Shown in pieces: positions 28,913 through 64,000 of a stretch of 64,000 nucleotides of DNA. Every line of letters begins with the position of its first letter. The stretch's first letter is position 1. The stretch comes from Vicinamibacterales bacterium. GTDB taxonomy: Bacteria > Acidobacteriota > Vicinamibacteria > Vicinamibacterales > UBA8438. The position numbers and the translations under genes are program-made. The stretch spans positions 2,333,633-2,397,632 of the forward strand of contig OZ220718.1 of assembly GCA_965116765.1 (NCBI GenBank), given 5' to 3'. Below the pieces are notes generated by a model. That model searched no databases, had not been told where the DNA came from, and saw nothing but the letters and a program-made list of their open reading frames with translations.

Positions 28913-30235
28913 GTGTCACGCCATCGAACCGGGACCCGATCGATCACCCCGGGCGCCGTCGTCCGAAACGTGGGGACCGCCATGCTGTTCGCCCTGGCGT
29001 GGGCGTGCGGCGGCGCGTCCGACCCCGGGACCGCGGGCGACGCGCGCAGCGCAATCCTGCCCGAGGGGGCGCCGTCCGACTTCTTCACGCCGCGGCCGGT
29101 CGGCGAGCCGCGCGGCGACGGCGAGCGGCCCCAGATCGCGCACGTCGCCATCGTCGACCTCGACGGCGACGGCCTTCCGGACATCCTGGCCTGCGACGCG
29201 ATCCGCAACCGGGTCGCCTGGATACGGCAGTACCCGGCCGGGACCTGGACCGAGGCGCCCGTCACCGAGGACATTCGCGCCCCCGCGCACGTGGAGCCGA
29301 CCGACTTCGACGGCGACGGCGACCTCGACCTGCTCGTCGCGAGCCTCGGCGAGCTCTTCCCGAGCGATCTGCGCATCGGCTCGGTCGTCATCCTCGAGAA
29401 CGACGGCGAGCAGCGCTTCACGAGCCGCGTCGCGGCCGAGGGCATTCCGCGGGTCGCCGACGTGCGGGCCGGCGACCTCGACGGCGACGGCGACCTCGAC
29501 CTCGCGGTGGCCGCCTTCGGCTACGACCACGGCGAGACGCTGTGGCTCGAGAACCGGGGCGGCTGGTCGTTCGAGGCCCACGTCCTGCAACGGTTCTCGG
29601 GCGCCATCAACGCCCTCGTCGCCGACCTCGACGACGACGGCGTCCGCGACGTGGTGGCCCTCGTCAGCCAGGAATGGGAGGAGATCTGGGCCTTCCCCGG
29701 CCCGGAGCTGCGGCAGCGGCTGCTCTGGGGCACGACGAACCCCGACTTCGGCTCCAGCTGGATCACCCTCGTCGATCTCGACCGGGACGGGGACCCCGAC
29801 ATCCTGCACAGCAACGGCGACGCGTTCGACTACGCGCCCGCCAACAGCCGCCCCTGGCACGGCGTGCAGTGGCTGGAGAACCGCGGCGGCATGGCGTTCA
29901 CGCCGCACCGCATCGCCGATCTGCAGGGCGCGTCGAGTCCGCAGGCCGCCGACCTCGACGGCGACGGCGATCTCGACGTGGCGGTGGTCAGCGCCTACAA
30001 CCAGTGGGACGACGAGTCGGCCCACAGCCTCGTCTGGCTCGAGAACAACGGGCGCATGCAGTTCACGATGCACCGCATCGCGCGCTCGCCGACCCACCTC
30101 ATCACCCTGGCCGCCGGCGATCTCGACGCCGACGGCACCGTCGACCTGGTCACCGGCGGCATGCACATCAGCGGTCCCTACGACCGCATGTCGCGGGTGA
30201 CGGTCTGGAGCAACGGTGGCCCGCCGGCGCCGTGA
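28913..30235 (+). CDS. FG-GAP/VCBS-repeat beta-propeller lipoprotein
   Basis: Lipobox AWAC; seven DxDxDGxxD-type Ca-binding blades. Confidence 0.9.
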   Translation: MSRHRTGTRSITPGAVVRNVGTAMLFALAWACGGASDPGTAGDARSAILPEGAPSDFFTPRPVGEPRGDGERPQIAHVAIVDLDGDGLPDILACDAIRNRVAWIRQYPAGTWTEAPVTEDIRAPAHVEPTDFDGDGDLDLLVASLGELFPSDLRIGSVVILENDGEQRFTSRVAAEGIPRVADVRAGDLDGDGDLDLAVAAFGYDHGETLWLENRGGWSFEAHVLQRFSGAINALVADLDDDGVRDVVALVSQEWEEIWAFPGPELRQRLLWGTTNPDFGSSWITLVDLDRDGDPDILHSNGDAFDYAPANSRPWHGVQWLENRGGMAFTPHRIADLQGASSPQAADLDGDGDLDVAVVSAYNQWDDESAHSLVWLENNGRMQFTMHRIARSPTHLITLAAGDLDADGTVDLVTGGMHISGPYDRMSRVTVWSNGGPPAP

Positions 30236-31781
30236 AAAGCGCGGCCGGGGCGCCGCGACGGCGGAACCGGCCGCCGCCGTCGGCCGTCCGGATCCGCGTC
30301 GGCGACGGTGGCTGGCGTGGGCGGCCGTCGCCGCCGTCGCCGCCGCCGTGCTCGTCGCGGGCGTCTCCCAGGCGAGGCGGGCGATGTACGCGGCGCGGCT
30401 TCCCGCCCTTCCCGAGCTGTCGGGCGAGCCGCCGGCCCTGCGCGAGCATCTCGAGGCGGCGGATCGCACCGCCCGCGCCCGGCCGACCTCCGCCGACGCG
30501 GTGGGGGCGCTCGGCCTCGCCTACCACGCCGACCTGTTCCTCGACCACGCCGACCGCGCCTACGCGGCGGCCGAGGCGCTCGGCGGCGATGCGTGGCGCT
30601 GGACCTGGTACCGGGCGCTGGCCGCCGGCACCCGCGGCGACACCCCGGCGCTGGCCGCCGGGCTGCGCCGGGTGGTCGCCGCCGCGCCCGACTTCGCCCC
30701 CGCATGGTGGCGGCTCGGGGAGGCCGAGTTCAAGGCGGGGCGCTACGACCCCGCCGCCGAGGCGTGGCGCAGCGCCCTGCCGCTGGCCGAGCCGGCGCCG
30801 CCGGCCGATGCGGCGGCAGGGTCGGAAGGAGGCGTCGAGGACGCGACGCCGGAGCGCGCGCCCGGGGCGCCGGTGTCGGCGTACGCCGCGCTCGGCCTCG
30901 CCCGGGTCGCGCTGGTGCAGGGCGACGCGCAGGCCGCGGCCGGGCGGCTGGAAGAGGTGACGGCGGGGGCGCCCGGCTTCGGCCCCGCCTTCCGGCTGCT
31001 CGGTGACGCGTACGCGACGTTGGGCCGTTCCGACCAGGCGGCACAGGCGGTTCGCACCGCGAACCGGCTGCCGCAGTACGAATCGTATCTCGACCCGCTG
31101 TCGGAGGCCCTCGTGCGGGAATCGCGGAGCACCACGTTCCTGCTCCAGCAGGCCGCCACCGCCGACCTCGCGACCAACGCCGCGTGGCGCGAGTACCTGA
31201 TTCGCCGGGCCCTGGAGTTCGACCCCGACCACGACGTCGCCCTCGCCGAGCTGGCCGCGACGTTCAGGATTCTCCGGCGCTACGAAGAGGCGCTGGAGCT
31301 GCTCGAGCGCCGCCGGCGCCGGCGGCCCGACGACTTCGGCGTGCTCGCCGACATGGGCCGCTGCCTCGCCGGCCTCCGACGCTACGGCGAAGCCGAGGAG
31401 ATGCTGCGGCGGGCGCTCGAAGGCCTCGACAACGCCCCCACCCGCTACGAGCTCGGCGCGGTGCTCGCCGCGTCGGGCCGGACGGGCGAGGCCATCGCCG
31501 AGTACCGTCGGGCCCTAGAGCGCAACCCCAATCACCTGGCGACGCTCAACAACCTGGGGGTGGTTCTGGCCGAGCAGGGCCGGATGGACGAAGCCGCCCG
31601 CCACTTCGAGCGGGTGATCGCGGTCGACCCCGAGAACGCCGACGCCCACGCCAACCTCGGCCTCGCGCTCGCGGGGCGCGGGGCGCGGGCTCGCGCCGCC
31701 GACGCGTTCCAGGAAGCGCTGCGTCTCGATCCCGACCACGCGGGGGCGCGCGCCGGGCTGCAGGATGTCGGATTGCGCTGA
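30216..31781 (+). CDS. Membrane-anchored TPR protein
   Basis: N-terminal TM, LPELSG motif, multiple TPRs (TLNNLGVVLAEQG, AHANLGLAL). Overlaps the FG-GAP gene. Confidence 0.88.
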   Translation: MARRRREKRGRGAATAEPAAAVGRPDPRRRRWLAWAAVAAVAAAVLVAGVSQARRAMYAARLPALPELSGEPPALREHLEAADRTARARPTSADAVGALGLAYHADLFLDHADRAYAAAEALGGDAWRWTWYRALAAGTRGDTPALAAGLRRVVAAAPDFAPAWWRLGEAEFKAGRYDPAAEAWRSALPLAEPAPPADAAAGSEGGVEDATPERAPGAPVSAYAALGLARVALVQGDAQAAAGRLEEVTAGAPGFGPAFRLLGDAYATLGRSDQAAQAVRTANRLPQYESYLDPLSEALVRESRSTTFLLQQAATADLATNAAWREYLIRRALEFDPDHDVALAELAATFRILRRYEEALELLERRRRRRPDDFGVLADMGRCLAGLRRYGEAEEMLRRALEGLDNAPTRYELGAVLAASGRTGEAIAEYRRALERNPNHLATLNNLGVVLAEQGRMDEAARHFERVIAVDPENADAHANLGLALAGRGARARAADAFQEALRLDPDHAGARAGLQDVGLR

Positions 31782-31835: not shown

Positions 31836-32240
31836 TCAGGGCCGCCCGGGCGACGGGCCAACGCTCTCCGAACCCGCATCCTCGCCACCTGCCGGTTCCC
31901 CGGCCCGGTCTTCCATGATGATCCGGGCACGGGCGAGGCGCGAGCGGACGGTGCCGATGGGAATGCCGAGACTGTCGGCGATGTCCGAGTAGCGCATCCC
32001 TTCCCGGTAGCGCAGCTCGACCACCTGCCGCTGGCGCGGCGACAGCCGGTCGACGCAGGGCTCCACCACCTTCCACCGGGCCCGGAGCCGCCCGGGTGGG
32101 TCCGTCGGACCAGCGCCTGCAGGAGCGTCCGAACCGTTCCCGCGGGCGCCGATGTGCTCCTCGATGACCAGGCTCGCGATCGATCTCAGCCAGTCGACCG
32201 TCTCGGCCGCGTGCCTTCCTCCGATGCGAAACTCGGGCAT
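31836..32240 (-). pseudogene. Truncated ECF sigma factor (region 4 only)
   Basis: LSPRQRQVVELRYREGMRYSDIADSLGIPIGTVRSRLARAR. An in-frame stop ~30 codons upstream of the ATG leaves no complete region 2. Confidence 0.65.
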
Positions 32241-32538
32241 GTCTTCCCCGGGCAGGCGGCCTCGGTCTGCAGCCCGGTACGCAAACCCACGAGCGTGCGT
32301 GCGAAGGCTGAATTTGTTTAGTTGGTTAAGTTAGACGCGGGATCCCCGCCCAGGGTTCATCGGGCGCCCCGACTGCAATACGGACCTTGCAGGAGGACCA
32401 TCTTGCCGCGGATGTCGTTTCGAGAAGAGACCAGGATTACGACTGTCCGCTGGCTGGTCTTGTCGTGCGGCAGTCCGGAAGGAACTCTCCGCCCGGAATC
32501 TTGGAGTTACTTCGAGGCGATCCGGACCGAGGTTGGGA

Positions 32539-32665
32539 CCCGTCCGGACCTCAAAGAAGAAGCTATCGTGATCGGAATCTCGGGAGCTGGTTCAACGCGC
32601 GCCCGGGGCCGAGGCAGGTACCGTCCGGACCTCAAGGAAGGAACCATCGTGATCGGAATCCCGGA
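32539..32665. repeat. ~45-bp imperfect direct repeat in a lower-GC spacer
   Basis: ccgtccggacctcaa(a/g)gaag...atcgtgatcggaatc at 32539 and 32621. Confidence 0.65.
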
Positions 32666-32808
32666 GTCGCTCTTGAGGCGCCGGTGGCCGAAGCGGCAGG
32701 TGGGGGCAGGTGGGTACTGTTCGGAACCTACTTCAAACAGGTGGATCTCCCTCTTGCGCCCGTGACGCGAGACGCTTGCAGGCGAGCGCCTGACAGTAGT
32801 ACAAGAGA

Positions 32809-32840
32809 GAGCCGGGAGAGAGAAGACTCTCTCCCGGCTC
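32809..32840 (-). terminator. Hairpin terminator after TonB receptor A
   Basis: gagccgggagagag-aaga-ctctctcccggctc, 14-bp stem; homologous to 44411 and 48110. Confidence 0.75.
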
Positions 32841-32901
32841 CGGAACGAAGGCGGGATTCACCGCCCGCCCGAAGGCGCGCGGTGACGACCGCGTACCCTG
32901 C

Positions 32902-35900
32902 CTAGAAGCGGGCGGTGACCGCGAATTGGATGACGCGGCCTTCGAGCATCCGGTTGCCGCGCTCCCAGGCAGTCAGGGCCTGGTAGTTGGCCCCGGTGCT
33001 GCCCCTTGCCTGTCGCGACCCGCCGGTGTGCTCCAGGACAACGCCGTTGTTGAGGACGTTGTAGAACGAGAACCGCGCGTCGTAGCGCCAGCTCCCGATG
33101 TTGAACACCTTCTGGAGGTTCACGTCGAGCTGCGTCCAGTACGGCAGGAACTTCACGCTGCTCAGCGGGATCGTCGGATACCAGCTATTGAAGAGATCGC
33201 CCGTGGAATGGTGGCCGATGGTCGTGACCCCATCCGGAATGATGTTCTGTCCGAGCACGCACGGCGCCACGCAGTGGCCGGGTTGACCGTAGAGCTCGGG
33301 CGAGTAGGTCCGGTACAGGTCGTTGGTCGACGTGCGGTGGACGTAGAGGCCCTCCTGCAGGCCGCCCCAGTCGCCCAGACCGCCCGGATACGCCTGCAGC
33401 GAGAAGCCGGCCTGCAGGTCGCCGATGCCCGGCAGCGAGAACGGCTGCGTGCCCGACAGCTTGAACTCGTTCCGGTACGGCCGCGGATAGGCGCCCGCGT
33501 CACAGAACCGAAGCTGCCACGGCTCGTCGCCCCGCTCCACGATGTCGGAGCAGAGGTTCACCTCGCCGCCGTACCGGCTGCCCGCGCCGCTGTTGTTGTC
33601 GGTGCCGTAGATCGACGTCCGGCCCGTGTCCTCCATCGACCAGCCGCCGAACAGGGTGCCGCCGCCGGGCAAACGCCCCTGCATGCTCAGCTCGAAGCCG
33701 CGGTAGACGTTGGTGAAGCCCGGGCCCCGCGTGCGGTCCGCGTAGCCTTCCTGGTTGGTCCGCACCGCCGGGTCGACGCTGAACGCGGTGAAGTGCCCGA
33801 CCATCGGGTACGGCCGCGCCACCTGGAAGTGCCGCACCGGGTTCCCCATGGTGTTGTCCACGGCATACGCCGGATCGGGAGAGCCGTCCGGGAACGCCCC
33901 GAAGTCCGACATGTTCCAGTTCGGGTTGTCGTCCCACCACGTGTTGTGGTACGTCCGCTGCCGGTACTCGCCGCTCAGCGAGATGCCCGGGAAGACCTCC
34001 TGCTGGATGCCTACGGTCCAGATGCGGTTGTACTCGCGATCGGTGATGTCGGGTGTCCGGGTGGGGCTGGAATTCGACCCGAAGCTGGTGTTCGAGATGG
34101 CCCCGATCTCCCAGTTCTGGGCAATGCCGTCCCAGTTCGTCCCGTACGGGTCGAGCCGGCTGCCCATGGCGTCCATGGCGCAGGCGTCGCCCGCCGCGTT
34201 CATCGTGCAGTCGTACCACTCGCGCTCGTCGTCGCGCAGGAACCCGTAGGCGTAGCGGCGGGCGAGGTTGCCGCCGATGTCACGCACGTACTTGTTGAAG
34301 CCGAACTTCAACGCCGTCCGGGCGTCGCCGAACACGTCGTAGGCCACGCTCAGCCGGGGAGAGAAGTCTGGGCCGAAGCTGGGCAGCTCGCTCTGCGGGC
34401 GACCGGGCTGCATGAACGCGGGCACGAACCGGCCCGGGCCCTTGGGCACCTCGGGAATCGAGACCGCCGCGAAGTCGACCCGCATCCCGTAGTTCAGGGT
34501 CAGCCGGTCGATGGTCCACGAGTCCTGCGCGTAGACGCCGCCGTTGTAGTCCAGCTTGTAGGCCAGGTACGACGGGTCGCTCAGGACGTTGACGCGGTCG
34601 GGCGTGCCCATCAGGCCGCAGTTCCCCTGGATGGTGCCGGCGTCGATGTTCGCCTGCGCCTGGGGATGGTCGCAGTTGAACCACTCTATCCCGTAGACGA
34701 GCGGCTGGCTCTGGATCAGGTTCCCCATGGGATGCGGGGCGCCGTCGTAGAACTGGTGCAGGTTGCCGTTGCTGCTGTTCGTGTGCCGGTTGTGGCCGTT
34801 CGTGATGTTCATCCCGAACTTGAAGCTGTGCGAGCCGGTGACGTACGACAGCGCGCTCTGGTAGGCCCAGCGGTGCGTGTAGTTGTTGTTCTCGCCCCAC
34901 TGCCGGGCGCCGTACTCCAGTCCCAGCCGGTTGTCGATCATGCCGACCTGCGAGTACCAGGGGTCGCCGCCCATCGACGCGGGCATCTGCGCCAGGTGCG
35001 CGGCCGAGCCCACCTCGGGGAAGCACGGCGTCGAGTAGCAGGTCGCCAGCGCGGACGGGTCGGGCTTCGGCTGCGCGATGAGGTTGCCGTCGTCGCGGTA
35101 CCGGTAGTAGCCGGGGTCCCAGTCCTCGTAGATGATCGAGAACCCGAACTCGGCCAGCATCCGGTTCGACAGCGTCCCCGTCCACTTCGCGGTCCCCGTG
35201 TCGTAGTGCGGGGACGTCCACGACGACGCCGCCGTGTTCAGGTCCTCGCCCGGGTTGTGCTGGCTGAACCGGCGCTTCCGAACCTTGTCGAACATCGCCG
35301 AGATCTTGTGCTGCTGCGTCATCTGCCACGTCAGCCGCACGTTCGCGCTGTGGATGGTGTTGTTGTCCAGACCCTGCGTGCCGTCGGGGTTGATGCTGTT
35401 GGTGATCTCGTTGTTCACCCCGTTCCACCGGCCCGTCGAGAAGAACCACAGGCGGTCGCGGAACACCGGGCCGCCGATGGCCCCGTTGTTGTCGTAGATG
35501 AGGCTGACGCCGGTCGCCGACTGGATGCCCTGGGCCTGGGCCGCCGGGCTCAGGTTGTCGGCCTGCCAGTTCCCCGGCGTGAAGCCCGTGAACCAGTTCC
35601 CGCTGAACTGGTTGCCCCCCTCGTTCGGGATCATGTTGATGCGCAGTCCGCCGGTCTGGGTCTCGGCGCCCTGCCCCGAGGTCGTGTACGACGTCTCCGC
35701 CGCCAGCATCGGGTTCAGGTAGGCCTGGTACCGGCCGTCGCTGATCATCGTGTTGATCATCATCCCGTCGACCTCGATCGTCGTGTTCGAGGCGTCGAGA
35801 CCGCGGCCCATCATCTCGGACTGCTGCACCCCCGCGGTGCCGCCCACGTCCGGCTTGTGCACCTTCACCCCCGGGATCAGGAGCGCGTACGACCACATGC

Positions 35901-36345: not shown

Positions 36346-36417
36346 GCGTGCACCTCCTCCATCAGAGACAACCACCGATTCATCTCTCTCCTCTGTTCAT
36401 TCACGTAGCCCGACCCG

Positions 36418-37158
36418 TCAGTTGCGACGGTCGCCGAGCCTCACGACGAAGCCGAGCGAGAACGACAGCTCCTTGAAGTCCTCGCCGCCCGGGTTCACCA
36501 ACGACGACGTCCCGCTCAGGTCGGTCTGCGCATCCTCGTTGGGGAACATCGTCAGCCGGTAGTCCGCCTGGATGCGGAACGCCGTGTTCGGCGTGATGTC
36601 GATGTCCACCCCGCCGCCGGGCTGAATCGCCCAGTGGGTCGCGGTGTGCGCGAAGAAGCCGATCTTGCGCAGCGACCGCGCCACCCCGAACAGCGCGTGG
36701 AAGTACGGCCGCACCCCGCCCGCCTGCAGGTGGAAACGCGGGCCGCCGACGACGCCGGCGGTCTGGATGTGCACCTGGCACAGGTTCGAGTACTCGCCCA
36801 CGTGCAACGGCGAGCAGTACTCCCGCTCGGGCCGGTTGAACGAGAGCGCCTGGAAGTCCTGGTTCGGGTTGGGCCGTACCGGCAGGTCGTTCGGCCCCCC
36901 GGAGTACATGGGGTGCGCGTCGATGCCGCGCCGGTAGTGCCCGTTCACGTCGAAGGCGAGCGAGAGGCCCTCGTTCACCTGGTACGACGTGTCGAAGAAC
37001 CAGCCGAAGGGCAGGTTGGACGCGTTCGCGGCCAGTTGGTCGTTCGTCAGAAACGAGTACCCGACCGCCAGGTCTCCGCCCACCTGCGCCGACGCCGGCG
37101 GGGGCACGAAAAGGGCCGTTGCCGTAAACACAACCGCACAAACAGTCAACCTGCGCAT
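36418..37158 (-). CDS. Small outer-membrane beta-barrel protein, copy 1 (246 aa)
   Basis: Signal peptide, LAVGYSFL, VGGPRF, RPYFHALFG, IQPGGGVDI, FRIQADYR, FSLGFVVRL; RBS aggag. Confidence 0.85.
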   Translation of the reverse strand: MRRLTVCAVVFTATALFVPPPASAQVGGDLAVGYSFLTNDQLAANASNLPFGWFFDTSYQVNEGLSLAFDVNGHYRRGIDAHPMYSGGPNDLPVRPNPNQDFQALSFNRPEREYCSPLHVGEYSNLCQVHIQTAGVVGGPRFHLQAGGVRPYFHALFGVARSLRKIGFFAHTATHWAIQPGGGVDIDITPNTAFRIQADYRLTMFPNEDAQTDLSGTSSLVNPGGEDFKELSFSLGFVVRLGDRRN

Positions 37159-37287
37159 GACCAGTCTCCTTGACAACAACGTTCATGACCCCGGGCGACG
37201 GCAACGTGTGCCGGCGGCCACCAGACGGCCGCCAGCGGTGAACGAAAAGTTCCGTCGGACGACAAGCGCAATCAGACGTCTGAGACG

Positions 37288-48139: not shown

Positions 48140-48159
48140 AGGGTGGAACTCACCCCGCG

Positions 48160-57323: not shown

Positions 57324-57334
57324 AGCTTCTTGCG

Positions 57335-57709
57335 CGCCGCCTTCCTGATCTCCTGACGCGTCTCGAACATCCTTCGCCCCCAATCGAACAGCGCCGCAAG
57401 CGGCACCACGAATGCCCGGCACAAACGGGTCGCCGCGCCGAAGGCTCAGGGCCGGTCGCTGCCGAAGAGCCGCCTCTCGACCTCCGCAGCGGGTATATTC
57501 CAGGTGGTCGCGATGCGCTCGCGAAGCCGTCGGCGTTCGTCTTCAAGCGCCTCTCGGACCGCCTCCTCAAGCCCCTTCTTGACCCTCTTCCGGACCTCCC
57601 TCTCGACCGCCGCCTTCCTGATCTCCTGACGCGTCTCGAACATCCTTCGCCCCCAATCGAACAGCGCCGCAAGCGGCACCACGAATGCCCAGTACAAGCG
57701 GGTCGCCGC
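57335..57709. repeat. ~102-bp direct repeat (57335-57436, 57608-57709)
   Basis: cgccgccttcctgatctcctgacgcgtctcgaacat...cgggtcgccgc twice. Confidence 0.9.
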
Positions 57710-57847
57710 CGTTTCGAAGCTCTGGTACACCCAGGAGCCCGATTCCGACCAGAGCTCGAGAGTCGCCACGCCGGCGCAACCCACGACGGCGAACCCGAGA
57801 GCCTGCCATCCCATACCCCGTTCCGACGTCGATCCGGCGCTCTCCAT
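57446..57847 (-). CDS. Small hypothetical membrane protein with charged helical tail
   Basis: Two hydrophobic segments, then MFETRQEIRKAAVEREVRKRVKKGLEEA; co-oriented with the upstream operon. Confidence 0.6.
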   Translation of the reverse strand: MESAGSTSERGMGWQALGFAVVGCAGVATLELWSESGSWVYQSFETAATRLYWAFVVPLAALFDWGRRMFETRQEIRKAAVEREVRKRVKKGLEEAVREALEDERRRLRERIATTWNIPAAEVERRLFGSDRP

Positions 57848-57883
57848 CGACGATACGTCGATGCAAGTACGCTGCCACGAGAC

Positions 57884-60800
57884 CTACTCAAGCTCGTCGT
57901 CCTGCCACGGGATGCGGCAGGGCTCGCCGCGGAGATAGCGCGCGAGGTTGGCGGACATGCGCCGCACCGCCGCCGACTGGCCCGCCTCGGCCGCGACGGA
58001 CATCGCGAGGCGCTGCCACTCGACCGCCCCCGCGAACTGCCCCAGCTCGGCGTGGGCCATCGCCATCGTCTCGGCGACGGCGGTGGTCCGGAGGTTCTCG
58101 GCCAGGGCCTGCGCCATCGCCAGCGCCCGGCCGCCGTCGCGCAGCGTGTCGTCGGGGGCGGCCGCGAGGAGGCGGGCCAGCGCGATGGAAAAAGCGGGTT
58201 CCCACGGATGCCGGTCGACCCCGCGGAGCAGGCGGTCGTGCGCCTCGCGATAGCGTCCCAGCTCGACGAGGGCCAGGACCTCGCCGAAGCGGGCGTCGCG
58301 GCGGTCGGCGACCTGCTCGTAGTAGGCGAGGGACGCCGCCTCCCGTCCCGACCGGCGCAGCGCCTCGGCGAGCCGGAAGTGCGCCTCCCCGCCGGTGGGC
58401 GCCTCCCCGCCGGCGGACGCCGCCGACGCGGCCAGCGTGTAGTGGCCGATGGCCTCGTCCACGCGGCCGGCCGCCTCGCGCACGGCGCCGATGGTGAGCT
58501 GCACCCGCGCCGTCAGGGCCGGATCGAGGCGCGCGGCCTCGGCGAGGTACGCCAGCGCCGTCTCGGCGTCGTCGCCCGAGAGGTGCAGGGCCATCCCCAG
58601 GTACCAATTGAGCATGGGGTCGCCCGGCGCGAGGGCGAGGGCCTGCCGGAACCGGGCGAGGGCCTCGGGCCAGTCGCCGACGGCGGCGGCGTCGAGCCCC
58701 CGCGTCCGGTGATCGCGGGGGTCGGCCCGGGCGGGGGCGTCGGACCCGACGGCGCCCCCGCCCAGGTCGAGCGGGGCGAGGGCGACCGGCGTCAGCGCCG
58801 CATCGCCCTCGCGGACCCGATACGCGCGGTCGAGCGCGACGTCGTCGTACACGTCCGTCTCTCCCGTCGCCGGCCAGGTCACGGCCACCCTCCGGACCGC
58901 GGTCGCCGCCCCGAGCCCGATCTCCTGCTGCAGGCTGGAGCCCCCGAAGCTGCCCCCGGCCCCTACGGTGACGTGGATGTCGCGGTCGCCTTCCGGGGTG
59001 ACCACGGCGACTCTGATGCGGGCGCCGATGGCGGCCCGGTTCGAGGCCGCCCCCTCGAGGCGCAGGGTCAGCCAGCGGTTGCCGTGGCCGGGGTTCAGGT
59101 AGAGGGCGTTCGGGAAGGTGTCGCCCTCGAAGGCCCCGCCGGAGACGTGGTACAGGTCCTGATCGCCGTCGGCGTCGAGGTCGCCGAACGAGACCCCGTG
59201 CCCCTTCTGCAGGTGCCCGAAGCCTCCCGACGAGGTGACGTCCTGGAAGCGCTCTCCCCCGGCGTTCCGGAACATCAGGTTGGGGATGAGCATGCGGTAG
59301 TCGGGGTCCCCGGTGCCCAGGTACAGGTCGAGGAACCCGTCGTTGTCGAGGTCGCCGAAGTTCGACCCCATGCCCACCATGAGCCGGTCGAGGCCCACCG
59401 CGGCGGTGACGTCGGTGAACGTGCCGTCGCGATCGTTGCGATAGAGGCGCGGCAGCTGGCCCTGGTGCGGCAGCCCGAGGCGCTCGAGGACGACGTCGGC
59501 CAGCCCCCCGCTGAACCCGCTGACGAAGAGGTCCTCCCACCCGTCGTTGTCGTAGTCGAAGAACCACGTGGGAAAGCTCACCGGGGGACCCTCGACCCCC
59601 GCCTCGGCCGCCGCGTCGCGGAACGACCACGCGCCGCCGGGGCCCGGCCCCTCGTTGCGGAAGAGCAGGTTGGGCTCGTCGGGGCGGAGCCGCGTCACGT
59701 AGAGGTCGAGGCGGCCGTCGTTGTCGTAGTCGCCCCAGACGGCGCCCTTGACGAAGCCGACCACCGCCACCCCGGCCTCGGCCGCGACGTCGGTGAACGT
59801 GCCGTCGCGGTTGTTGCGGAAGAGCCGGGAGGGATACACCGACCCGCCGCCGGGCGCGGCCGCGCCGGCGCCGCCGGGGGGGACCCGCGACTCGTTGCCG
59901 ATGAAGAGGTCGACCCACCCGTCGTTGTCGTAGTCGCCCCACGCCGCGGCCTGGGTCGGGGCCGGCATGAGCAGGCCCGCCGCCTCGGTGACGTCGGTGA
60001 ACGTGCCGTCGCCGTCGTTCCGCAGGAGCGAGTTGGGGTGCCCGGTGTCGAGCCACGCCCCGCGCAGGACCAGCAGATCGAGCGACCCGTCGTTGTCGTA
60101 GTCGGCGTGGATGACGTGGAGGCCGCTGACGAGCCCGTCGAGCCCGGCCTCGGTGGTCCGCTCCGTGAAGGTGCCGTCGCCCTCGTTCCGGAAGTACCGC
60201 AGCTGGTTGGCGTTCTCCCCCTCCGCCACCGCGAACAGGCCGGCCGACGACGCGACGACGTCGAGGCGCCCGTCGCCGTCGAAGTCGTCCATGACGCTGC
60301 CGCCCTTCCGGCCCGCGTCGTCGAGGCCGAGCCGCCCCGCCACGTCGGGGAACCGGCCCACGTCGTGCTCGGCGCGGAACGCCTCGGGCGGCACCAGCCA
60401 CGGCTCGGGCACGTGGAACGGGTACTCGCCGACCATCATGTAGGCGAGATTGAGCAGCCACTGCGCCGCCAGCGCGGTCGACTCGTCGGGCGGATCGCCG
60501 AGGACGCGGGCGTACTCGGCGATGGCCCGCCGGGCCGCGCCGTCGTCCGGGTGCACCGCCTCGCGGCCGACCGGCACCGAGCAGCGGGCGGCGGCGGGCC
60601 CCGAGACGCAGTTGCGCTGCATGGCCACGCGCAGGTGGGACAGGGCGAGGAGCTGCCGCACCGCGCTGACGAACGTGGGCGAGACCGACGGGTCCGCGGC
60701 CGCCTCGCGGAGGACGTCGTCGAACGCCGCCGCCGCCTCTTCGCTCCGGCCGGCGTTGAGCAGGTATCGCGCGATCTCCGACCGGTAGCGCAGCAGGTCG

Positions 60801-61021
60801 GGCGGGAAGACGGGCGGGGTCACCGCGCTCAGGGTCCGCACCCGCATCGAGCCGGCGTAGGGGTTGGTTGCCGCCTCGGCGGAGGCAATCGCCTCGAGCC
60901 GCGCCACCATGGCGGCGGTGCCCGACTCGCCCCCGTCCCGTTGCCCGGCCGCCGACGGGACCGCGACGAGGACGGCGGCGGCCACCGCGAGCCCCGTCCG
61001 GCGGACGACACGCCCCGTCAT
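57884..61021 (-). CDS. CRTAC1/ASPIC-UnbV propeller fused to C-terminal TPR domain
   Basis: Signal peptide, helical N-domain (WLLNLAYM...YP), DYDNDG blades, GHLQKGHG, GGSFGGSSLQQEIGLG, TPR tail ALARLLAAAPD...RDG. Confidence 0.9.
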   Translation of the reverse strand: MTGRVVRRTGLAVAAAVLVAVPSAAGQRDGGESGTAAMVARLEAIASAEAATNPYAGSMRVRTLSAVTPPVFPPDLLRYRSEIARYLLNAGRSEEAAAAFDDVLREAAADPSVSPTFVSAVRQLLALSHLRVAMQRNCVSGPAAARCSVPVGREAVHPDDGAARRAIAEYARVLGDPPDESTALAAQWLLNLAYMMVGEYPFHVPEPWLVPPEAFRAEHDVGRFPDVAGRLGLDDAGRKGGSVMDDFDGDGRLDVVASSAGLFAVAEGENANQLRYFRNEGDGTFTERTTEAGLDGLVSGLHVIHADYDNDGSLDLLVLRGAWLDTGHPNSLLRNDGDGTFTDVTEAAGLLMPAPTQAAAWGDYDNDGWVDLFIGNESRVPPGGAGAAAPGGGSVYPSRLFRNNRDGTFTDVAAEAGVAVVGFVKGAVWGDYDNDGRLDLYVTRLRPDEPNLLFRNEGPGPGGAWSFRDAAAEAGVEGPPVSFPTWFFDYDNDGWEDLFVSGFSGGLADVVLERLGLPHQGQLPRLYRNDRDGTFTDVTAAVGLDRLMVGMGSNFGDLDNDGFLDLYLGTGDPDYRMLIPNLMFRNAGGERFQDVTSSGGFGHLQKGHGVSFGDLDADGDQDLYHVSGGAFEGDTFPNALYLNPGHGNRWLTLRLEGAASNRAAIGARIRVAVVTPEGDRDIHVTVGAGGSFGGSSLQQEIGLGAATAVRRVAVTWPATGETDVYDDVALDRAYRVREGDAALTPVALAPLDLGGGAVGSDAPARADPRDHRTRGLDAAAVGDWPEALARFRQALALAPGDPMLNWYLGMALHLSGDDAETALAYLAEAARLDPALTARVQLTIGAVREAAGRVDEAIGHYTLAASAASAGGEAPTGGEAHFRLAEALRRSGREAASLAYYEQVADRRDARFGEVLALVELGRYREAHDRLLRGVDRHPWEPAFSIALARLLAAAPDDTLRDGGRALAMAQALAENLRTTAVAETMAMAHAELGQFAGAVEWQRLAMSVAAEAGQSAAVRRMSANLARYLRGEPCRIPWQDDELE

Positions 61022-61045
61022 TCGTTCCTCCCGCCCGTCCCGCCG

Positions 61046-62404
61046 TCAGCGCAGCCGCGCCCGCAGCCCGGTCAGCTGCGGGTGGCCGGGGAGAATCGAC
61101 AGCGCCTCGGCGAGCCGCTCGCGCGCCTCATCGACGCGGCCGAGGCCGGCGAGGGCCATCACGTATCCCGTCCACGCGTCCGCGAACCGGGGGTCCGCCA
61201 CCACCACCTGACGGTACTCGGCGAGCGCCGCCTCGGCCCGTCCCGTCACCCGCAACGCGTCGGCGAGGCCGACCCGCGCCTCCAGATAGTCGGGCTGATG
61301 CTCGACCGCCGCGCCGAACCGCTCCGCCGCCTCGAGATGGCGGCCGTCGAGCCGCGCGACCATGCCGAGGCCGAAGTGCGCCCTCGCGAAGTCGGGAGAG
61401 CGGCGGATGGTCTCTTCGAACTGCTCCACGGCGCCCGCCGGGTCGCCCGCCATCATCAACGCCGTGCCCAGCCGGTGCCGCAGGGCGGGGTCGTCCGGGG
61501 CCAGCTCCAGCCCCCGGCGAAACAGGTCCTCCGCCGCCGCCGGCTCCCTGTTCTGCAAGGCCCGGATCCCGCGCATCTCGTAGGTGAGCGGGCTCTCCAG
61601 CACCTCCGAATAGGCGTCCATCAGCGGGTCCGGCACCGCCGCGACGCCGCCGCCGCGCCGGCGCAGGTGCGCCTCGGCCGCGCCGAGGTCGCCGAGCTGC
61701 CGATAGGCCATCGCCAGGGGATAGTGCAGGCTCGTCGCGCGCGCGTCGGCGGACAGCGCACGCGTCAGGTAGTCGACCGCCCGCCCCGCCTCCCCTTTCG
61801 CCAGCGCCGCGCGCCCCATGCCGGCCAACGCCGGGGCGAGGCCGGCATCGAGGGTCAGCGCCCGCATGAACGCCTCCTCGGCCGCATCGGGGCGGCTCTG
61901 GTCGAGCAGGGTGTCGCCCAGCCGGACCAGCGCGGCCGGATCCGTCGGCCGCAGCTCGTGCGCCCGCGCGAAGAGCCCGGCCGCCGCCGCGCGGTCGCCC
62001 TCCACGGCGTGGAGATGGCCGAGATAGTACGGCCAGCGCATCTCGTCGGGCGCGAGGTCCATCGCGCTCGCGAAGCAGTCGGCGGCGGCCTCGTGGTACT
62101 CGACGGCCATGAGCACGAGGCCGAGGTCGCCGAAGGCGTCGGCGAGCTCGACCGGCGGCGTGCCGGCCTCGGCGAGCTTCGCCGCGAGGCCCTCGTGGCG
62201 CTCGCGCACCTGACGCTGGACCGATACGGCCACGCCGGAGAGGTCCGGCAGGACGATCGGCTGCCGCGGGCCGCCCGCCCGCATCGCGCGCCCGTCGCCC
62301 GGGAGACGCGACGCCAGGGCGCTCTCGTCCGGGGCGGCGGCGCAACCGGCCGCGAGGGCCGCGGCGCATGCGAGGAACGCCGCTCCCACCCGGTGTCCGG
62401 TCAT
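61046..62404 (-). CDS. TPR lipoprotein, paralogue of 40543-42201
   Basis: Lipobox AAGC, LPDLSG, RWPYYLGHL, HYPLAMAYR, PDPL. Confidence 0.9.
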   Translation of the reverse strand: MTGHRVGAAFLACAAALAAGCAAAPDESALASRLPGDGRAMRAGGPRQPIVLPDLSGVAVSVQRQVRERHEGLAAKLAEAGTPPVELADAFGDLGLVLMAVEYHEAAADCFASAMDLAPDEMRWPYYLGHLHAVEGDRAAAAGLFARAHELRPTDPAALVRLGDTLLDQSRPDAAEEAFMRALTLDAGLAPALAGMGRAALAKGEAGRAVDYLTRALSADARATSLHYPLAMAYRQLGDLGAAEAHLRRRGGGVAAVPDPLMDAYSEVLESPLTYEMRGIRALQNREPAAAEDLFRRGLELAPDDPALRHRLGTALMMAGDPAGAVEQFEETIRRSPDFARAHFGLGMVARLDGRHLEAAERFGAAVEHQPDYLEARVGLADALRVTGRAEAALAEYRQVVVADPRFADAWTGYVMALAGLGRVDEARERLAEALSILPGHPQLTGLRARLR

Positions 62405-62405
62405 G

Positions 62406-64000
62406 TCAGCCGCCCTCGCCTTCCCGCAGCGTCGTGTAACGGCCGGGGGGAACGTCGCGCCAGGTCTCGCTGCGCCCGCTCGGCCACGTGACCCGCACCT
62501 CGACCGGGGCCGCCGACGCTCCGAGCCCGACCAGGACGCGCGGATCCTGCGCGGAGGCATAGCTGCCGTCGGCGCGTGCGCGGCGCCACACCCGCGAGCC
62601 GTCCTCGATCACCACCTCCACCCGGGCGCCGATCATGTCGCGCGGCGCATCCCCGCCGACGAGCCGCAGGCCCACCCACCGGTTGTCCTCGCCGATTCGG
62701 TTCACGAGCAGCCGCAGCGGGCCGGCCCCGTTGCCGACCACCACGTCGACGTCGCCGTCGTTGTCGACGTCGCCGAACGCGGCGCCCCGGCTGACCTCCG
62801 ACAGGCGGAACACCTCGCCCGCGCGGTCCGTCACGTCGTCGAAGCGCCCGTCGCCCCGGTTGCGGAACAACAGGTTGCGCTGCTGCAGGGGAAACGGGTT
62901 GTCCGGCCCCAGCAGGTCCATGTCGCGGGTGACGTGGCCGTTGACGGAGAACAGGTCCAGCCAGCCGTCGTTGTCGAAGTCGAGCCACGCGGTCCCGAAG
63001 CCGGTATAGGGCAGGCTGGGCAGACGTATGAACGCCTGCATGCTCCGCTCCTCGAACAGGCCGGAGCCGTCGTTGACGTAGAGGGTGCTGCCCTGACCGA
63101 TGAGCTCGGTGACGAACAGGTCCTCGTCGCCGTCGTTGTCGAAGTCGCCGGCGTCGACGCCCATGTCCGCCTTGGCTTCCCCGCCGGCCCCCAACGCCGC
63201 CCCCCACAACGGCGCCCGGTTGACGAAGGTGCCGTCGCCGCGGTTGATCCAGAGCTGGTTCTCCTGCTGATCGTTGGCGACGAAGATGTCCGTCCAGCCG
63301 TCGTTGTCGAAGTCGGCCGTCGACACCCCGAGGGCCGGGCCGAACTCCCAGGCGACGCCGGCCTCCGCCGTCACGTCGACGAAGGTGCCGTCGCCGCGAT
63401 TGCGATACAGGCGATCGGGCTGGGCGCGATAGACCTCGGGCGGGCAGTAGTCGGGAGGTCCCGAGCGGTTGAAGCACGGGACGTGGGTGTCGAGGCTGAA
63501 GCTCAGGTAGTTGCCGACGAAGAGATCCAGCCACCCGTCGCGGTCGTAGTCGAGAAAGGCGGCCGACACCCCCCAGCGGTCGGGATCGTGGGTGCCGCTC
63601 TCCTCCGACACGTCCGAGAACGTCCCGTCGCCGTTGTTCCGGAACAGCCGGTTGCGCTCGAATCCCGTCAGGTAGAGGTCGACCCAGCCGTCGTTGTCGT
63701 AGTCGCCGGCCGCGGCCCCCATGCCGTGCCCGCCCGCGTTCAGCCCGCTCCCGGCCGACACGTCGGTGAACCGCAGCCGGGGGCCGTCCGGCGACGGCTC
63801 CAGATCGTTGCGGTAGAGGCGGTCGGTGAGGGGGCCTTCCGGCGGCGGGATCAGCGGGTCGCCGCCTCCCAGCGTGCGCCCCTGCGTCACGTGGACGTCG
63901 AGGTCGCCGTCGTTGTCGTAGTCGAGCAACGCCACGCCGGGGCCCATGATCTCGGTCTGATGGAAGTCGCCCGTCATGCCGTTGAAGTGCACGAAGTCGA
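62406..64000 (-). CDS. CRTAC1/ASPIC-UnbV protein, N-terminus beyond window; paralogue of 42422-44239
   Basis: DFVHFNGMTG, LTDRLYRNDL, SLPYTGFG, SRGAAFGDVDNDGD, GSYASAQDPRVLVGLG. Confidence 0.92.
   Translation of the reverse strand, partial: DFVHFNGMTGDFHQTEIMGPGVALLDYDNDGDLDVHVTQGRTLGGGDPLIPPPEGPLTDRLYRNDLEPSPDGPRLRFTDVSAGSGLNAGGHGMGAAAGDYDNDGWVDLYLTGFERNRLFRNNGDGTFSDVSEESGTHDPDRWGVSAAFLDYDRDGWLDLFVGNYLSFSLDTHVPCFNRSGPPDYCPPEVYRAQPDRLYRNRGDGTFVDVTAEAGVAWEFGPALGVSTADFDNDGWTDIFVANDQQENQLWINRGDGTFVNRAPLWGAALGAGGEAKADMGVDAGDFDNDGDEDLFVTELIGQGSTLYVNDGSGLFEERSMQAFIRLPSLPYTGFGTAWLDFDNDGWLDLFSVNGHVTRDMDLLGPDNPFPLQQRNLLFRNRGDGRFDDVTDRAGEVFRLSEVSRGAAFGDVDNDGDVDVVVGNGAGPLRLLVNRIGEDNRWVGLRLVGGDAPRDMIGARVEVVIEDGSRVWRRARADGSYASAQDPRVLVGLGASAAPVEVRVTWPSGRSETWRDVPPGRYTTLREGEGG

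Follow-up and report, generated by a model that had tools for sequence, protein, structure and literature searches.

The genome is that of a sponge-associated acidobacterium, and in the region described here its cell-envelope genes form a genuine cluster that is conserved and whose function is predicted. Gene calls were based on third-position GC and codon training, domains were assigned with Pfam, and all positions refer to the window, i.e. the whole 64,000-nt stretch of DNA that was analyzed. The cluster contains three Oar-class TonB-dependent receptors, two small barrels, three propeller+TPR pairs, one propeller-TPR fusion and two TPR-tailed enzymes, which are arranged as follows.

26774-28828, minus strand: Sel1-repeat protein with 14 Sel1 repeats (Pfam Sel1, E 8.5e-123).
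28913-30235, plus strand: FG1, FG-GAP propeller with a lipobox-like N terminus (Pfam FG-GAP_3, E 1e-41).
30216-31781, plus strand: TPR1, the TPR partner, TM-anchored at its N terminus (Pfam TPR families).
31836-32240, minus strand: short ORF with sigma-70 region 4 only, an ECF-type sigma factor fragment (Pfam Sigma70_r4_2, E 4e-17).
32806-32841, minus strand: terminator-like hairpin after TBDR1 (read by eye).
32902-36345, minus strand: TBDR1, Oar-class TonB-dependent receptor, a recently duplicated copy (Pfam).
36418-37158, minus strand: BRL1, small outer-membrane barrel of eight strands, with signal peptide (model and Foldseek; Pfam sub-cut-off).
37180-40540, no strand: duplication scar with pseudogene debris (blastx, and Pfam on full-length paralogues).
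40543-42192, minus strand: TPR2, TPR lipoprotein and ASPIC2 partner (Pfam TPR; LAAC lipobox read).
42422-44239, minus strand: ASPIC2, CRTAC1-like FG-GAP propeller with UnbV/ASPIC domain and lipobox-like N terminus (Pfam).
44410-44441, minus strand: terminator-like hairpin after TBDR2 (hairpin scan).
44496-47957, minus strand: TBDR2, tandem receptor copy without its own barrel (Pfam).
48109-48140, minus strand: terminator-like hairpin after TBDR3 (hairpin scan).
48160-51589, minus strand: TBDR3, at the site of the single receptor of congeners (Pfam, genus synteny).
51663-52406, minus strand: BRL3, small barrel upstream of TBDR3 (Pfam).
52984-55092, plus strand: signal peptide, monoheme cytochrome c, PHM/DBH-like copper monooxygenase and TPR tail.
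55209-57323, plus strand: membrane-bound GT-C glycosyltransferase (PMT_2), TPR-tailed at its C terminus and TMTC-like in architecture (Pfam).
57446-57847, minus strand: small ORF, genus-conserved (alignment to congeners).
57884-61021, minus strand: ASPIC-TPR fusion of propeller, ASPIC domain and TPR tail (Pfam).
61046-62404, minus strand: TPR4, TPR lipoprotein and ASPIC4 partner (Pfam; LAAGC lipobox).
62406-64000, minus strand, running past the window end: ASPIC4, CRTAC1-like propeller (Pfam).

All mapped cluster genes carry a signal peptide, lipobox-like motif or TM anchor at the N terminus, as read by eye, and an earlier note on this DNA had reported such features for most of the genes. Its statement that glycoside hydrolase, peptidase, SusD and siderophore genes are missing agrees with the Pfam search of the region, in which none of these families was matched. 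The start of ASPIC2 was placed from orthologue alignments and reading. The 5' end of ASPIC4 lies ~200 nt beyond the window, and the full gene, taken from L181, encodes 598 aa in the genome. The small ORF at 57446-57847 gave no Pfam match and occupies the same position, with 71-77% identity, in G001, G002, G009 and G014. Just to the left of FG1, the Sel1-repeat gene may be a member of the cluster; in G023, G217 and G120, the TPR and GT-C+TPR genes have a Sel1 homologue between them, and in G000 (at 1.33 Mb) another adjoins an ASPIC gene. In one sponge metatranscriptome run (X2), contigs covered 30 of 30 bins of 48100-64000, which signifies presence in an RNA library only, and the runs in which the sequence is best represented include some labeled sponge metagenome.

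TBDR1 matched CarboxypepD_reg (53 bits) and OMP_b-brl_4 (87 bits) above the Pfam cut-offs, together with a Plug domain at 19.6 bits, under the cut-off. BRL1 matched OMP_b-brl at 26 bits, under the cut-off of 28.7; its model has eight long strands, and Foldseek returned Ail, OmpA-TM and OmpX. A tblastn search for the small barrel found two copies in the window and likewise two in the whole genome, with none upstream of TBDR2. Of 201 genomes of the class, nine had a full-length barrel, and all 12 full-length homologues lay beside a receptor; the 8-stranded barrel is strongly indicated to be an obligate neighbor of this receptor subfamily. A terminator-like hairpin follows each receptor on its 3' side, two being returned by the scanner and the third, after TBDR1, recognized by eye; the latter has a GGAGCCGGGAGAGAG stem as in the other two, but a T-poor tail.

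The segments 32895-37105 and 48152-52350 share 91.5% DNA identity over 4.2 kb. The three receptors are 78-89% identical to one another (88.6% for TBDR1 and TBDR3, 78-79% for TBDR2 and either of these), and BRL1 and BRL3 are 89% identical. In the scar at 37.2-40.5 kb lie pieces of YhgA-like transposase and integrase genes, part of TPR2 and 78 bp copied from the 3' end of TPR1; 37745-38265 is a 97% DNA copy of 40821-41346. A single barrel+receptor is found in three of four congeners (G001, G002 and G009), the extra copies being shared with G014 alone. The receptor triplication arose recently, when one barrel+receptor cassette was duplicated in association with mobile elements, and the data strongly indicate an ancestral unit of ~25 kb with one barrel and one receptor. 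The earlier note had described three modules of barrel, receptor and terminator. Three receptors with a hairpin after each were indeed found, but there are only two barrels and, in view of the 91.5% DNA identity, the repeated modules are one duplicated cassette and not independent repeats; because these repeats arose by recent duplication, a count of three exaggerates the modularity. As a separate observation, copies of the Sigma70_r4_2 ORF (31836-32240) adjoin the inserted cassette in G014.

The three propeller-TPR pairs and the single fusion were mapped as previously described by gene calls and Pfam, with the qualification that FG1, a single-copy gene in this genome, gave no UnbV_ASPIC match in Pfam. 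The ASPIC family profile matches solved CRTAC1 (9etn, E 8e-34), and the nearest named relatives of the ASPIC genes are from Vicinamibacterales MAGs. The fusion tail is 51% identical to residues 265-538 of TPR2. Each of the seven ASPIC genes in this genome either adjoins a TPR gene or is fused with one. A broader set of 80 ASPIC loci included Acidobacteriota, Planctomycetota, Poribacteria, Latescibacterota, Gemmatimonadota and Pseudomonadota. Propeller and TPR genes were co-directionally adjacent or fused in 53 of these loci, with fusion proteins called in eight and overlapping junctions in 37 of 58 cases; the N-terminal 300 aa of TPR1 matched 21 of the partner TPR proteins. TPR families were present in 20 of 20 partner proteins by Pfam (alignment A3, a subset of the partners). 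TPR genes made up 79 of 190 ASPIC-adjacent genes (42%) compared with 29 of 642 other genes (4.5%) in the same loci, although Fisher tests overstate the significance of this and the other neighbor enrichments because the compared loci and genomes are related.

The earlier note had also suggested a check for a propeller:TPR interface. The modeled ASPIC4:TPR4 heterodimer gave an ipSAE of 0.90 in three runs compared with 0.00 for the best of three controls; the runs share at least 79% of contacts, and partner pLDDT was at least 90. In calibration of the tool, 58 of 80 solved complexes and 2 of 110 mismatched pairs attained this ipSAE mark, counts that apply only roughly to ASPIC4:TPR4 because our own alignments were used. 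In the predicted heterodimer, the TPR solenoid grips propeller residues ~234-432. There is strong indication that the core of the cluster is an exported, Ca-binding, CRTAC1-like propeller with an adjacent, dedicated and often translationally coupled TPR gene.

The two enzymes reported to carry TPR tails do so by Pfam. The monooxygenase matched Cu2_monoox_C at 23.4 bits against a cut-off of 23, with TPR families in the tail, and has a PHM fold (Foldseek E 2e-14) with all expected Cu-ligand positions present; the motifs CXXCH, MPPW and then HH..H..HxH..M are conserved in 25-28 of 28 paralogues. The GT-C protein matched PMT_2 at 65.5 bits (cut-off 26.1) and also TPR families, and every GT-C gene called in the neighborhoods of 15 relatives was TPR-tailed. 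These data strongly indicate that the monooxygenase is a periplasmic, heme-c-fed, PHM-like enzyme and that the GT-C protein is an inner-membrane, TMTC-like enzyme. Because a monoheme cytochrome c is fused at the N terminus of the monooxygenase, its electrons probably come from a respiratory-chain protein rather than from ascorbate.

G080 and G142, from two other families within the order, again have the full set of components, with shuffled gene order. The arrangement is ASPIC> TPR> GTC+TPR> <CuMO+TPR <TPR <ASPIC <TBDR <BRL in G080 and BRL> TBDR> ASPIC> TPR> CuMO+TPR> <GTC+TPR <TPR <ASPIC in G142, where CuMO is the Cu-monooxygenase. In G023, a locus reads BRL> TBDR> CuMO> ASPIC> TPR> ASPIC, and the set is divided between two loci, each with its own barrel and receptor. 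The distance from GT-C to barrel was 5-10.4 kb in all five non-genus genomes with a full-length barrel, in which GT-C copies number 1-6 per genome of 5-6 Mb. The full set is limited to one order: across the 80 broad ASPIC loci, the barrel was found in none, GT-C in none and a TPR-tailed Cu-monooxygenase in one. The cluster is conserved at the level of an Acidobacteriota order and is not a chance pile-up, and the propeller-TPR pair is far more widespread than the full cluster. The proposal that such genes co-locate beyond family abundance is borne out by G080 and G142, by the TPR share (42% vs 4.5%) and by the barrels (12 of 12), but for the full set it holds in that order only. Only 2 of 15 GT-C neighborhoods hold an ASPIC gene. 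TonB-dependent receptor genes flank the ASPIC/TPR block at 16 of 141 positions compared with 12 of 498 genes at least three positions away, and 7 of 10 receptors at position -1 are co-directional. Only 32 of the 80 broad loci have any receptor within 10 kb; from this and the 16 flanking positions, it follows that the propeller:TPR pair works without a dedicated receptor in most genomes. Literature searches returned no characterized example of such a system, in keeping with the earlier note, which knew of none, and no known function for bacterial ASPIC proteins.

We tentatively favor, at somewhat short of even chances, a model in which the transporter and barrel act together with propeller:TPR complexes, probably to capture a ligand and take it up, and envelope proteins are modified by the two TPR-tailed enzymes. 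Here, the complexes would act as ligand-capturing receptors at the outer membrane, from which a macromolecular ligand, be it protein, peptide or glycoconjugate, would reach the Oar-class transporter and its partner barrel to be taken up, by analogy with TbpB/TbpA or SusD/SusC. The TPR tails would bring the hydroxylase and glycosyltransferase to envelope protein substrates, the simplest candidates being the propellers themselves or transported cargo. The two enzymes have no obvious role in nutrient import, which speaks against uptake, as do the narrow distribution of the full set and the lack of a dedicated receptor for most propeller:TPR pairs. Further points against the model are the Plug score under the cut-off, the small share of GT-C neighborhoods with an ASPIC gene and the location of 26 of 28 Cu-monooxygenase paralogues away from ASPIC genes.

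The reverse direction of transport is rather unlikely, though a serious rival. Here, the Oar-class transporter and small barrel would carry (lipo)proteins of the propeller and TPR types outward to the surface once GT-C has O-glycosylated and the PHM-like enzyme hydroxylated them in the periplasm, with the TPR partner as periplasmic holdase or chaperone; the whole would serve to mature and display surface proteins, possibly for sponge-host contact. The export signals read on all candidate cargo proteins, the sponge metagenome runs and the modeled TPR grip, which would extend chaperone-like along the whole propeller, are consistent with this. Oar, with a PF13620 N-terminal extension and Plug as here, is needed for secretion of the PopC protease (PMC6434023), and TMTC-type GT-C+TPR enzymes glycosylate animal extracellular adhesion proteins (PMC7801869, PMC11292533). 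However, an 8-stranded barrel is too narrow for a folded 60-kDa propeller, and no receptor lies near most ASPIC-TPR pairs. Most TonB-dependent transporters are thought to import, and the genome has 59 receptor HMM matches.

It is also unlikely, and slightly more so, that the pairs, the barrel+receptor and the two enzymes are functionally separate, with no common substrate, and owe their shared location to regulation or history. In most of the 80 loci, ASPIC-TPR occurs without receptor or enzymes, 13 of 15 GT-C+TPR neighborhoods lack ASPIC, 26 of 28 Cu-monooxygenase paralogues lie elsewhere in this genome, away from ASPIC genes, and the G023 set is split. Against such independence, three families have the whole set although its order and orientation are reshuffled, the monooxygenase form in the clusters (G080, G142, G025 and L102) is the TPR-tailed one, and both G023 half-loci keep their own barrel and receptor.

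That the system is an artifact of very abundant paralogous families (TPR, receptor, propeller) is very improbable: the genome does hold 28 TPR-labeled genes, 28 Cu-monooxygenase and 101 PQQ-propeller paralogues besides its 59 receptor matches, and the paralogous families listed for Solibacter usitatus (PMC3174227) include both ASPIC/UnbV proteins and TonB-dependent receptors, but TPR and receptor enrichment was measured inside the same loci, GT-C stays within 10.4 kb of the barrel in 5 of 5 non-genus genomes although each has only 1-6 GT-C copies, a PQQ negative control beside Cu-monooxygenases showed no enrichment (2 observed, 1.33 expected), and the enrichments, the barrel-receptor adjacency and the recurrence of the full set largely refute this reading.

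Among known systems, SusC/SusD of Bacteroidota and TbpA/TbpB of Neisseria likewise have genes for exported or lipidated binding proteins downstream of a receptor gene, an order also seen here and in the 7 of 10 co-directional cases at position -1, and SusD itself consists of TPR-like helices. They differ in that no SusD, TbpB or CAZyme family was matched in this region, the receptor is Oar-class, extended at its N terminus by PF13620, a propeller:TPR heterodimer would be the binding unit, and most such pairs have no adjoining receptor. Oar, the Myxococcus xanthus transporter required for PopC secretion (PMC6434023), shares the CarboxypepD_reg extension, Plug and barrel when compared by domain architecture; no PopC-like protease is present here, however, and the genome has dozens of this receptor class.

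Slam (type XI secretion) combines a DUF560 barrel and a periplasmic TPR domain beside lipoprotein cargo and a TonB-dependent transporter (PMC8406197), so that TPR, outer-membrane barrel, lipoprotein and transporter share one locus as here. Pfam TPR_Slam scored above cut-off in TPR4, both enzyme tails and 18 of 20 partner TPR proteins, among many generic TPR cross-matches, but the barrel here is a separate, OmpX/Ail-like 8-stranded protein and not DUF560, and the TPR is a separate protein. CRTAC1/ASPIC (animal cartilage acidic protein 1) shares the FG-GAP propeller, repeated D-x-D-x-D-G calcium loops and UnbV/ASPIC domain, whereas the bacterial proteins carry signal peptides or are lipoproteins and are encoded with a TPR partner.

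TMTC1-4 are animal GT-C/PMT-clan O-mannosyltransferases with luminal TPR domains, for which prokaryotic homologues are noted in PMC7801869. The multi-TM GT-C N-terminal domain and C-terminal non-cytoplasmic TPR domain are common to both, although the Pfam match here is PMT_2 and the TMTC-typical DUF1736 loop model was not matched. Finally, the cluster monooxygenase differs from PHM and dopamine beta-hydroxylase in its 16-20% sequence identity, N-terminal monoheme cytochrome c, TPR tail and membership of a set of 28 paralogues, but shares with them the two-domain fold over ~300 columns and the conserved HH..H and HxH..M pattern.

Raw ORF lists of the window contained abundant antisense artefacts as a result of its high G+C content (~72%). 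Gene calls combined Pfam with third-position GC and with codon statistics learned from one known (anchor) gene; when checked on the window, the anchor-trained caller gave back the Pfam-supported map. Between 28.9 and 64 kb, the gene content described in an earlier note, which had read the region as a modular envelope system, was found to be essentially right by Pfam and the codon-trained calls. The cluster is composed of the following elements, where FG1 and ASPIC denote propellers, TPR their partner proteins, TBDR the receptors and BRL the small barrels:

Plus strand: FG1 (28913-30235; FG-GAP propeller without an ASPIC domain), then TPR1
Minus strand: BRL1, then TBDR1
37.2-40.5 kb: 3.3-kb stretch without intact genes
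Minus strand: ASPIC2, then TPR2
Minus strand: TBDR2
Minus strand: BRL3, then TBDR3
Plus strand: cytochrome-c/copper-monooxygenase+TPR gene (CuMO), then GT-C (PMT_2)+TPR gene (GTC)
Minus strand: ASPIC4, then TPR4, then the ASPIC-TPR fusion

Signal peptides, lipobox-like motifs or membrane anchors could be read by eye at the N termini of all cluster genes, and the same strong hairpin lies 3' of each receptor gene. The earlier note's further statement, that glycoside hydrolase, peptidase, SusD and siderophore genes are missing, also held for the Pfam matches; no SusD, GH, PL or CE family was matched by any cluster gene, and the locus does not qualify as a PUL. In NCBIfam, the only matches were generic TPR cross-hits that fell short of the cut-off; propellers, receptors and barrels had none. 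The segments that carry receptors and barrels (32000-38000 and 44000-52000) have a G+C content of 66-68%, compared with 71-76% in adjoining genes, which could reflect the composition bias of barrel proteins or a different origin.

Elsewhere in the window, its left half encodes two DUF5916 proteins (5507-6742, minus strand; 12183-14711, plus strand), one also with a CBM9 domain, near an OmpA-family gene, a GMC oxidoreductase gene and a spermidine-synthase-like plus amine-oxidase gene pair; these genes and their neighbours are unrelated to the envelope cluster. Where two bPH_2 (bacterial PH domain) genes adjoin, there is a 150-bp direct repeat (1417-1570 and 1599-1747, 95% identity). At 26774-28828 (minus strand) a Sel1-repeat protein with 14 repeats is encoded by a diverged 108-bp tandem array (self-matches of 73-76% at offsets of 108 nt and multiples); homologues occur inside the cluster in three other genomes (G023, G217 and G120), and the window's own genome has one next to a further ASPIC gene. 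A 133-aa ORF at 57446-57847 (minus strand), a possible gene, has no Pfam match; four congeners carry counterparts of 71-77% identity in the corresponding place.

The earlier note had counted three small barrels and a receptor module in three copies. Searches by tblastn of the window and of the whole 6.49-Mb genome recovered two barrels only. These are 89% identical, the three receptors are 78-89% identical to one another, and 4.2 kb of DNA is repeated at 91.5% identity (32895-37105 and 48152-52350). The stretch without intact genes (37180-40540) is a scar containing a 90%-identical TPR2 fragment and a 78-bp copy of the TPR1 end, together with pieces of two multi-copy families, identified by Pfam as a YhgA-like transposase and a phage-type integrase. 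Three of the four congeners examined (G001, G002 and G009) have one barrel and one receptor, in the order FG1> TPR1> <TPR2 <ASPIC2 <TBDR <BRL CuMO> GTC> <ASPIC-TPR <TPR4 <ASPIC4; the extra copies are shared only with the fourth, G014. Given the number of barrels, the identity of the copies, the scar and the single-copy congeners, the supposed three-fold module is a recent duplication associated with mobile elements, and the ancestral unit is ~25 kb in length. Directly downstream of TBDR1, a 134-aa ORF (31836-32240, minus strand) matches sigma-70 region 4 only, and in G014 the inserted cassette has related copies on its flanks; the ORF could be the remnant of an ECF sigma factor carried along with the cassette.

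The propellers contain FG-GAP repeats (FG-GAP_3, E 1e-41 to 4e-50 by Pfam), and in their alignments calcium-loop columns of the form D.D.DG..D recur and are invariant, while two cysteines are nearly so. UnbV_ASPIC (PF07593) was matched at 34-59 bits (cut-off 23.4) in ASPIC2, ASPIC4 and the fusion protein and was not found in FG1 by Pfam. The ASPIC-family profile detected the solved structure of CRTAC1 (cartilage acidic protein 1, 9etn) at E 8.1e-34, establishing homology.

With the ASPIC profile, 80 loci and 10 kb on either side of each were collected from contigs of one genome per species, and their genes were called and labelled by phmmer. Going by record titles, the loci come from Acidobacteriota (several classes), Planctomycetota, Poribacteria, Latescibacterota, Gemmatimonadota, Verrucomicrobiia and Pseudomonadota. 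A co-directional adjoining TPR gene or a TPR fusion was present at 53 of the 80 anchors, or 59 when the opposite strand was allowed, and TPR genes made up 79 of 190 genes adjoining an ASPIC gene compared with 29 of the remaining 642 genes at these loci. Fisher p-values for such counts are inflated because the loci are related to one another; the pattern is nonetheless seen across phyla. ASPIC and TPR genes overlap at 37 of 58 junctions, 21 of them by 4 nt, and TPR families were confirmed by Pfam in all 20 proteins tested from among the partners. Fusion of ASPIC and TPR was observed in 8 of the 80 loci and once more in the window, and all seven ASPIC genes of the host genome, at four loci, adjoin or are fused to a TPR gene. 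The possibility that the fusion arose by insertion of a propeller into a TPR protein was not supported, as BLASTP found no similarity between its N-terminal 240 aa and the N-terminal half of TPR2.

Beyond ASPIC, TPR and receptor genes, no family occurred in more than 7 of the 80 loci, and there is no conserved enzyme in them to hint at a substrate. In other genomes, lipoboxes were counted in 8 of 79 ASPIC proteins and 7 of 57 TPR partners by a crude regular expression limited by start-codon calls; at this low frequency, lipidation is not a general feature of the pair. The 5-Mb genome G032 (same order, other family) has 19 ASPIC2 matches, several of them in tandem with TPR genes and receptors on one contig (C13), a strong local expansion of the pair.

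The propeller:TPR interaction for which the earlier note had proposed modelling was predicted in every run. Residues 56-598 of ASPIC4, the gene having been completed from the genome beyond the window end, were modelled with residues 45-452 of TPR4, using 20-row alignments of our own. The ipSAE was 0.90 in each of three runs, and none of the three controls exceeded 0.00; the calibrated mark, which 58 of the 80 solved complexes and 2 of the 110 mismatched pairs had attained, is a rough guide here given the use of our own alignments. The runs share at least 79% of contacts, with partner pLDDT of at least 90; the 123-140 contacts join residues 234-432 of the propeller to residues 53-437 of the TPR protein. 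The prediction thus supports binding of ASPIC4 to TPR4, and the combination of genomic coupling, fusions and model strongly indicates a propeller:TPR heterodimer.

All three receptors have an N-terminal CarboxypepD_reg extension (PF13620, 49-53 bits, cut-off 32.3) and a large C-terminal barrel (OMP_b-brl_4, 79-90 bits, cut-off 30). Between the extension and the probable plug lies the stretch ETITVSGE, a putative TonB box. Plug (PF07715) scored 19.1-20.4 bits, below its cut-off of 23.9, at the expected position (residues ~140-237). TBDR1 has no sequence relative among solved structures. The order of extension, probable plug and barrel is that given for the Oar subclass of TonB-dependent transporters in PMC6434023.

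The small barrel has a signal peptide and was modelled with 8 long strands (pLDDT 66). Foldseek matched the model to Ail, OmpA-TM, NspA and OmpX (3qra at E 6e-8, 9fzc and 1qj9 among the entries), and Pfam OMP_b-brl scored 26 bits, below its 28.7 cut-off. A search of 201 genomes of the class returned 12 full-length barrel copies in 9 genomes, all 12 adjoined by a receptor of the subfamily described above, 9 barrels being immediately upstream and co-directional and 3 divergent. Seven partial, weak matches had no receptor within their short flanks. These data strongly indicate that the neighbourhood of barrel and receptor is obligate.

The GT-C protein matches PMT_2 over residues 94-250 (65.5 bits, cut-off 26.1) and TPR families from residue ~480 onward, a tail that is kept in every GT-C called in the neighbourhoods of 15 relatives. 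A GT-C membrane domain with C-terminal TPRs is the architecture described for the TMTC O-mannosyltransferases (PMC7801869). Since the DUF1736 loop typical of TMTC1-4 is absent from its Pfam matches, the protein is here called TMTC-like in architecture and not a TMTC. The GT-C domain had no sequence match among solved structures.

An AlphaFold model of CuMO (pLDDT 75) matched PHM (3mll at E 2.2e-14, and 1phm) and dopamine beta-hydroxylase (DBH, 4zel) in Foldseek, all with probability 1.00 over 290-320 columns, indicating a two-domain beta-sandwich. Residues H218, H219, H288, H354, H356 and M437, in the order HH, H, HxH, M, are kept in 25-28 of 28 paralogues, and the His positions are invariant in nine of nine orthologue rows from other genomes; these residues fill the expected copper-ligand positions (three His for one site, two His and a Met for the other), the pairing of each with a given PHM ligand being presumed from the pattern. 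With Cu2_monoox_C (cut-off 23) the isolated domain scored 23.4 and the complete protein 22.4, and the Pfam model of the N-terminal half, Cu2_monooxygen, had no match in CuMO. Upstream of the copper pattern lie the marks of haem c, with CXXCH in 28/28 and MPP(W) in 27-28/28 paralogues; Pfam cytochrome models scored 19.9, below a cut-off of 27.

The 28 paralogues of the host genome, which have a signal peptide and a monohaem cytochrome c, are mostly 425-540 aa long and scattered on the chromosome. The window copy (52984-54330) is the only one with a TPR tail, and tailed copies are those in the clusters of G080, G142 and G025 and at the broad ASPIC locus L102. A loose literature search found no description of a bacterial cytochrome-c/PHM fusion family, and these 28 PHM-like monooxygenases with their fused cytochrome c merit attention as a family by themselves. 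Another very large expansion in this genome comprises 101 proteins similar to the PQQ-dependent dehydrogenase propeller (E below 1e-6). One such gene lies upstream of the cluster (23880-25865), and in G024 and G036 similar genes are found alongside ASPIC genes; PQQ dehydrogenases were rejected as cluster members because of these many paralogues and the lack of enrichment beside copper monooxygenases (2 observed, 1.33 expected).

Among the public runs in which 50% or more of the words sampled from 42.4-52.4 kb occur, there are some labelled as sponge metagenome, one of them a metatranscriptome, and the organism is probably sponge-associated. In metatranscriptome X2, contigs in near-identical pieces covered 30 of 30 bins of 48.1-64 kb, which establishes presence in the RNA library only. 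X11, X17 and X19 had contigs in 15, 10 and 10 of the 30 bins, mostly at TBDR3 and BRL3, gaps elsewhere proving nothing. Such contigs are blind to strand, operon structure and expression level, and DNA may be present in the libraries.

Conservation of the whole set was assessed in the same 201 genomes, 50 of which have the GT-C domain. In every genome outside the genus with a full-length barrel (G023, G217, G120, G080 and G142), the barrel has a GT-C+TPR gene at a distance of 5-10.4 kb. Two of these, from two other families of the order, encode proteins ~46-59% identical to those of the window in a different gene order. In G080 it is ASPIC> TPR> GTC+TPR> <CuMO+TPR <TPR <ASPIC <TBDR <BRL, and in G142 BRL> TBDR> ASPIC> TPR> CuMO+TPR> <GTC+TPR <TPR <ASPIC, followed by more GT-C, receptor and monooxygenase copies. 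Given this divergence and rearrangement, selection on co-localisation is favoured over inherited synteny. In G023 the set is divided between two loci, each with its own barrel and receptor. The cluster as a conserved entity is thus strongly indicated.

The 80 broad ASPIC loci contained no barrel (0/80), no GT-C (0/80) and one monooxygenase+TPR gene (1/80, L102). A receptor of any kind lay within 10 kb at only 32 of them, and receptors were enriched at the edges of ASPIC/TPR blocks, where they accounted for 16 of 141 flanking genes compared with 12 of 498 genes at least three positions away. Among 15 GT-C neighbourhoods, 2 contained an ASPIC gene, 6 a monooxygenase and 9 a receptor, and 26 of the 28 monooxygenase paralogues are located away from ASPIC genes. 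It follows from these absences that the propeller:TPR pair is the widespread, autonomous unit, which a single order has elaborated into the larger cluster.

That the two TPR-tailed enzymes act on the periplasmic side is strongly indicated. For the cluster as a whole, we regard it as quite possible, if somewhat short of probable, that the propeller:TPR pair and the Oar-class transporter serve ligand capture and uptake, with the TPR tails aiming both enzymes. Propeller:TPR heterodimers would capture a macromolecular ligand and pass it on to the transporter in a TbpB/TbpA-like or SusD/SusC-like manner; the tails would direct the hydroxylase and the glycosyltransferase to proteins of the envelope, the simplest targets being the propellers or the cargo. 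The opposite direction, in which transporter and barrel export or display modified propellers, is the main rival; it has a precedent in Oar/PopC and is judged unlikely; if it applied, that single precedent would be extended. It is similarly doubtful that the sub-modules are functionally independent. The neighbourhood survey found co-localisation beyond family abundance at three levels (propeller-TPR, barrel-receptor and the whole set). Chance co-location is very improbable and largely excluded.

A further reading, of low probability, is that propeller and TPR partner form a hitherto undescribed two-protein envelope complex, found across several bacterial phyla, that in this order was built into a dedicated maturation and trafficking pathway. 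The TMTC-like O-glycosyltransferase and the haem-c-driven, PHM-like hydroxylase, each guided to the propeller by its TPR tail, would modify it, and transporter and barrel would then place or use it at the surface. If true, this would constitute a bacterial counterpart, in a sponge symbiont, of the maturation of animal extracellular-matrix and adhesion proteins. Should the enzymes act on the propellers, TPR domains would be directing both the O-glycosylation of bacterial periplasmic proteins and their copper-dependent hydroxylation.

Few uncharacterised envelope families of Acidobacteriota, Planctomycetota and sponge symbionts are as large as those of the ASPIC/UnbV (CRTAC1-like) proteins and the Oar-class receptors. 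In the literature searched, no description was found of a bacterial CRTAC1-like:TPR pair or of the cluster as such, and a literature search for a bacterial function of UnbV likewise found none. The conserved, translationally coupled and confidently modelled heterodimer provides a concrete experimental handle, and its candidate partners in the cluster are few and well delimited (receptor, barrel and two TPR-tailed enzymes).

Among known systems, Slam-dependent (type XI) secretion employs a 14-stranded DUF560 barrel, whereas the barrel here is 8-stranded and OmpX-like, with no DUF560 match by Pfam. SusC/SusD PULs combine a SusD-family lipoprotein with carbohydrate-active enzymes, and by Pfam the cluster has neither. 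All of its protein families are known, and loci that unite a receptor with accessory proteins are a known kind.
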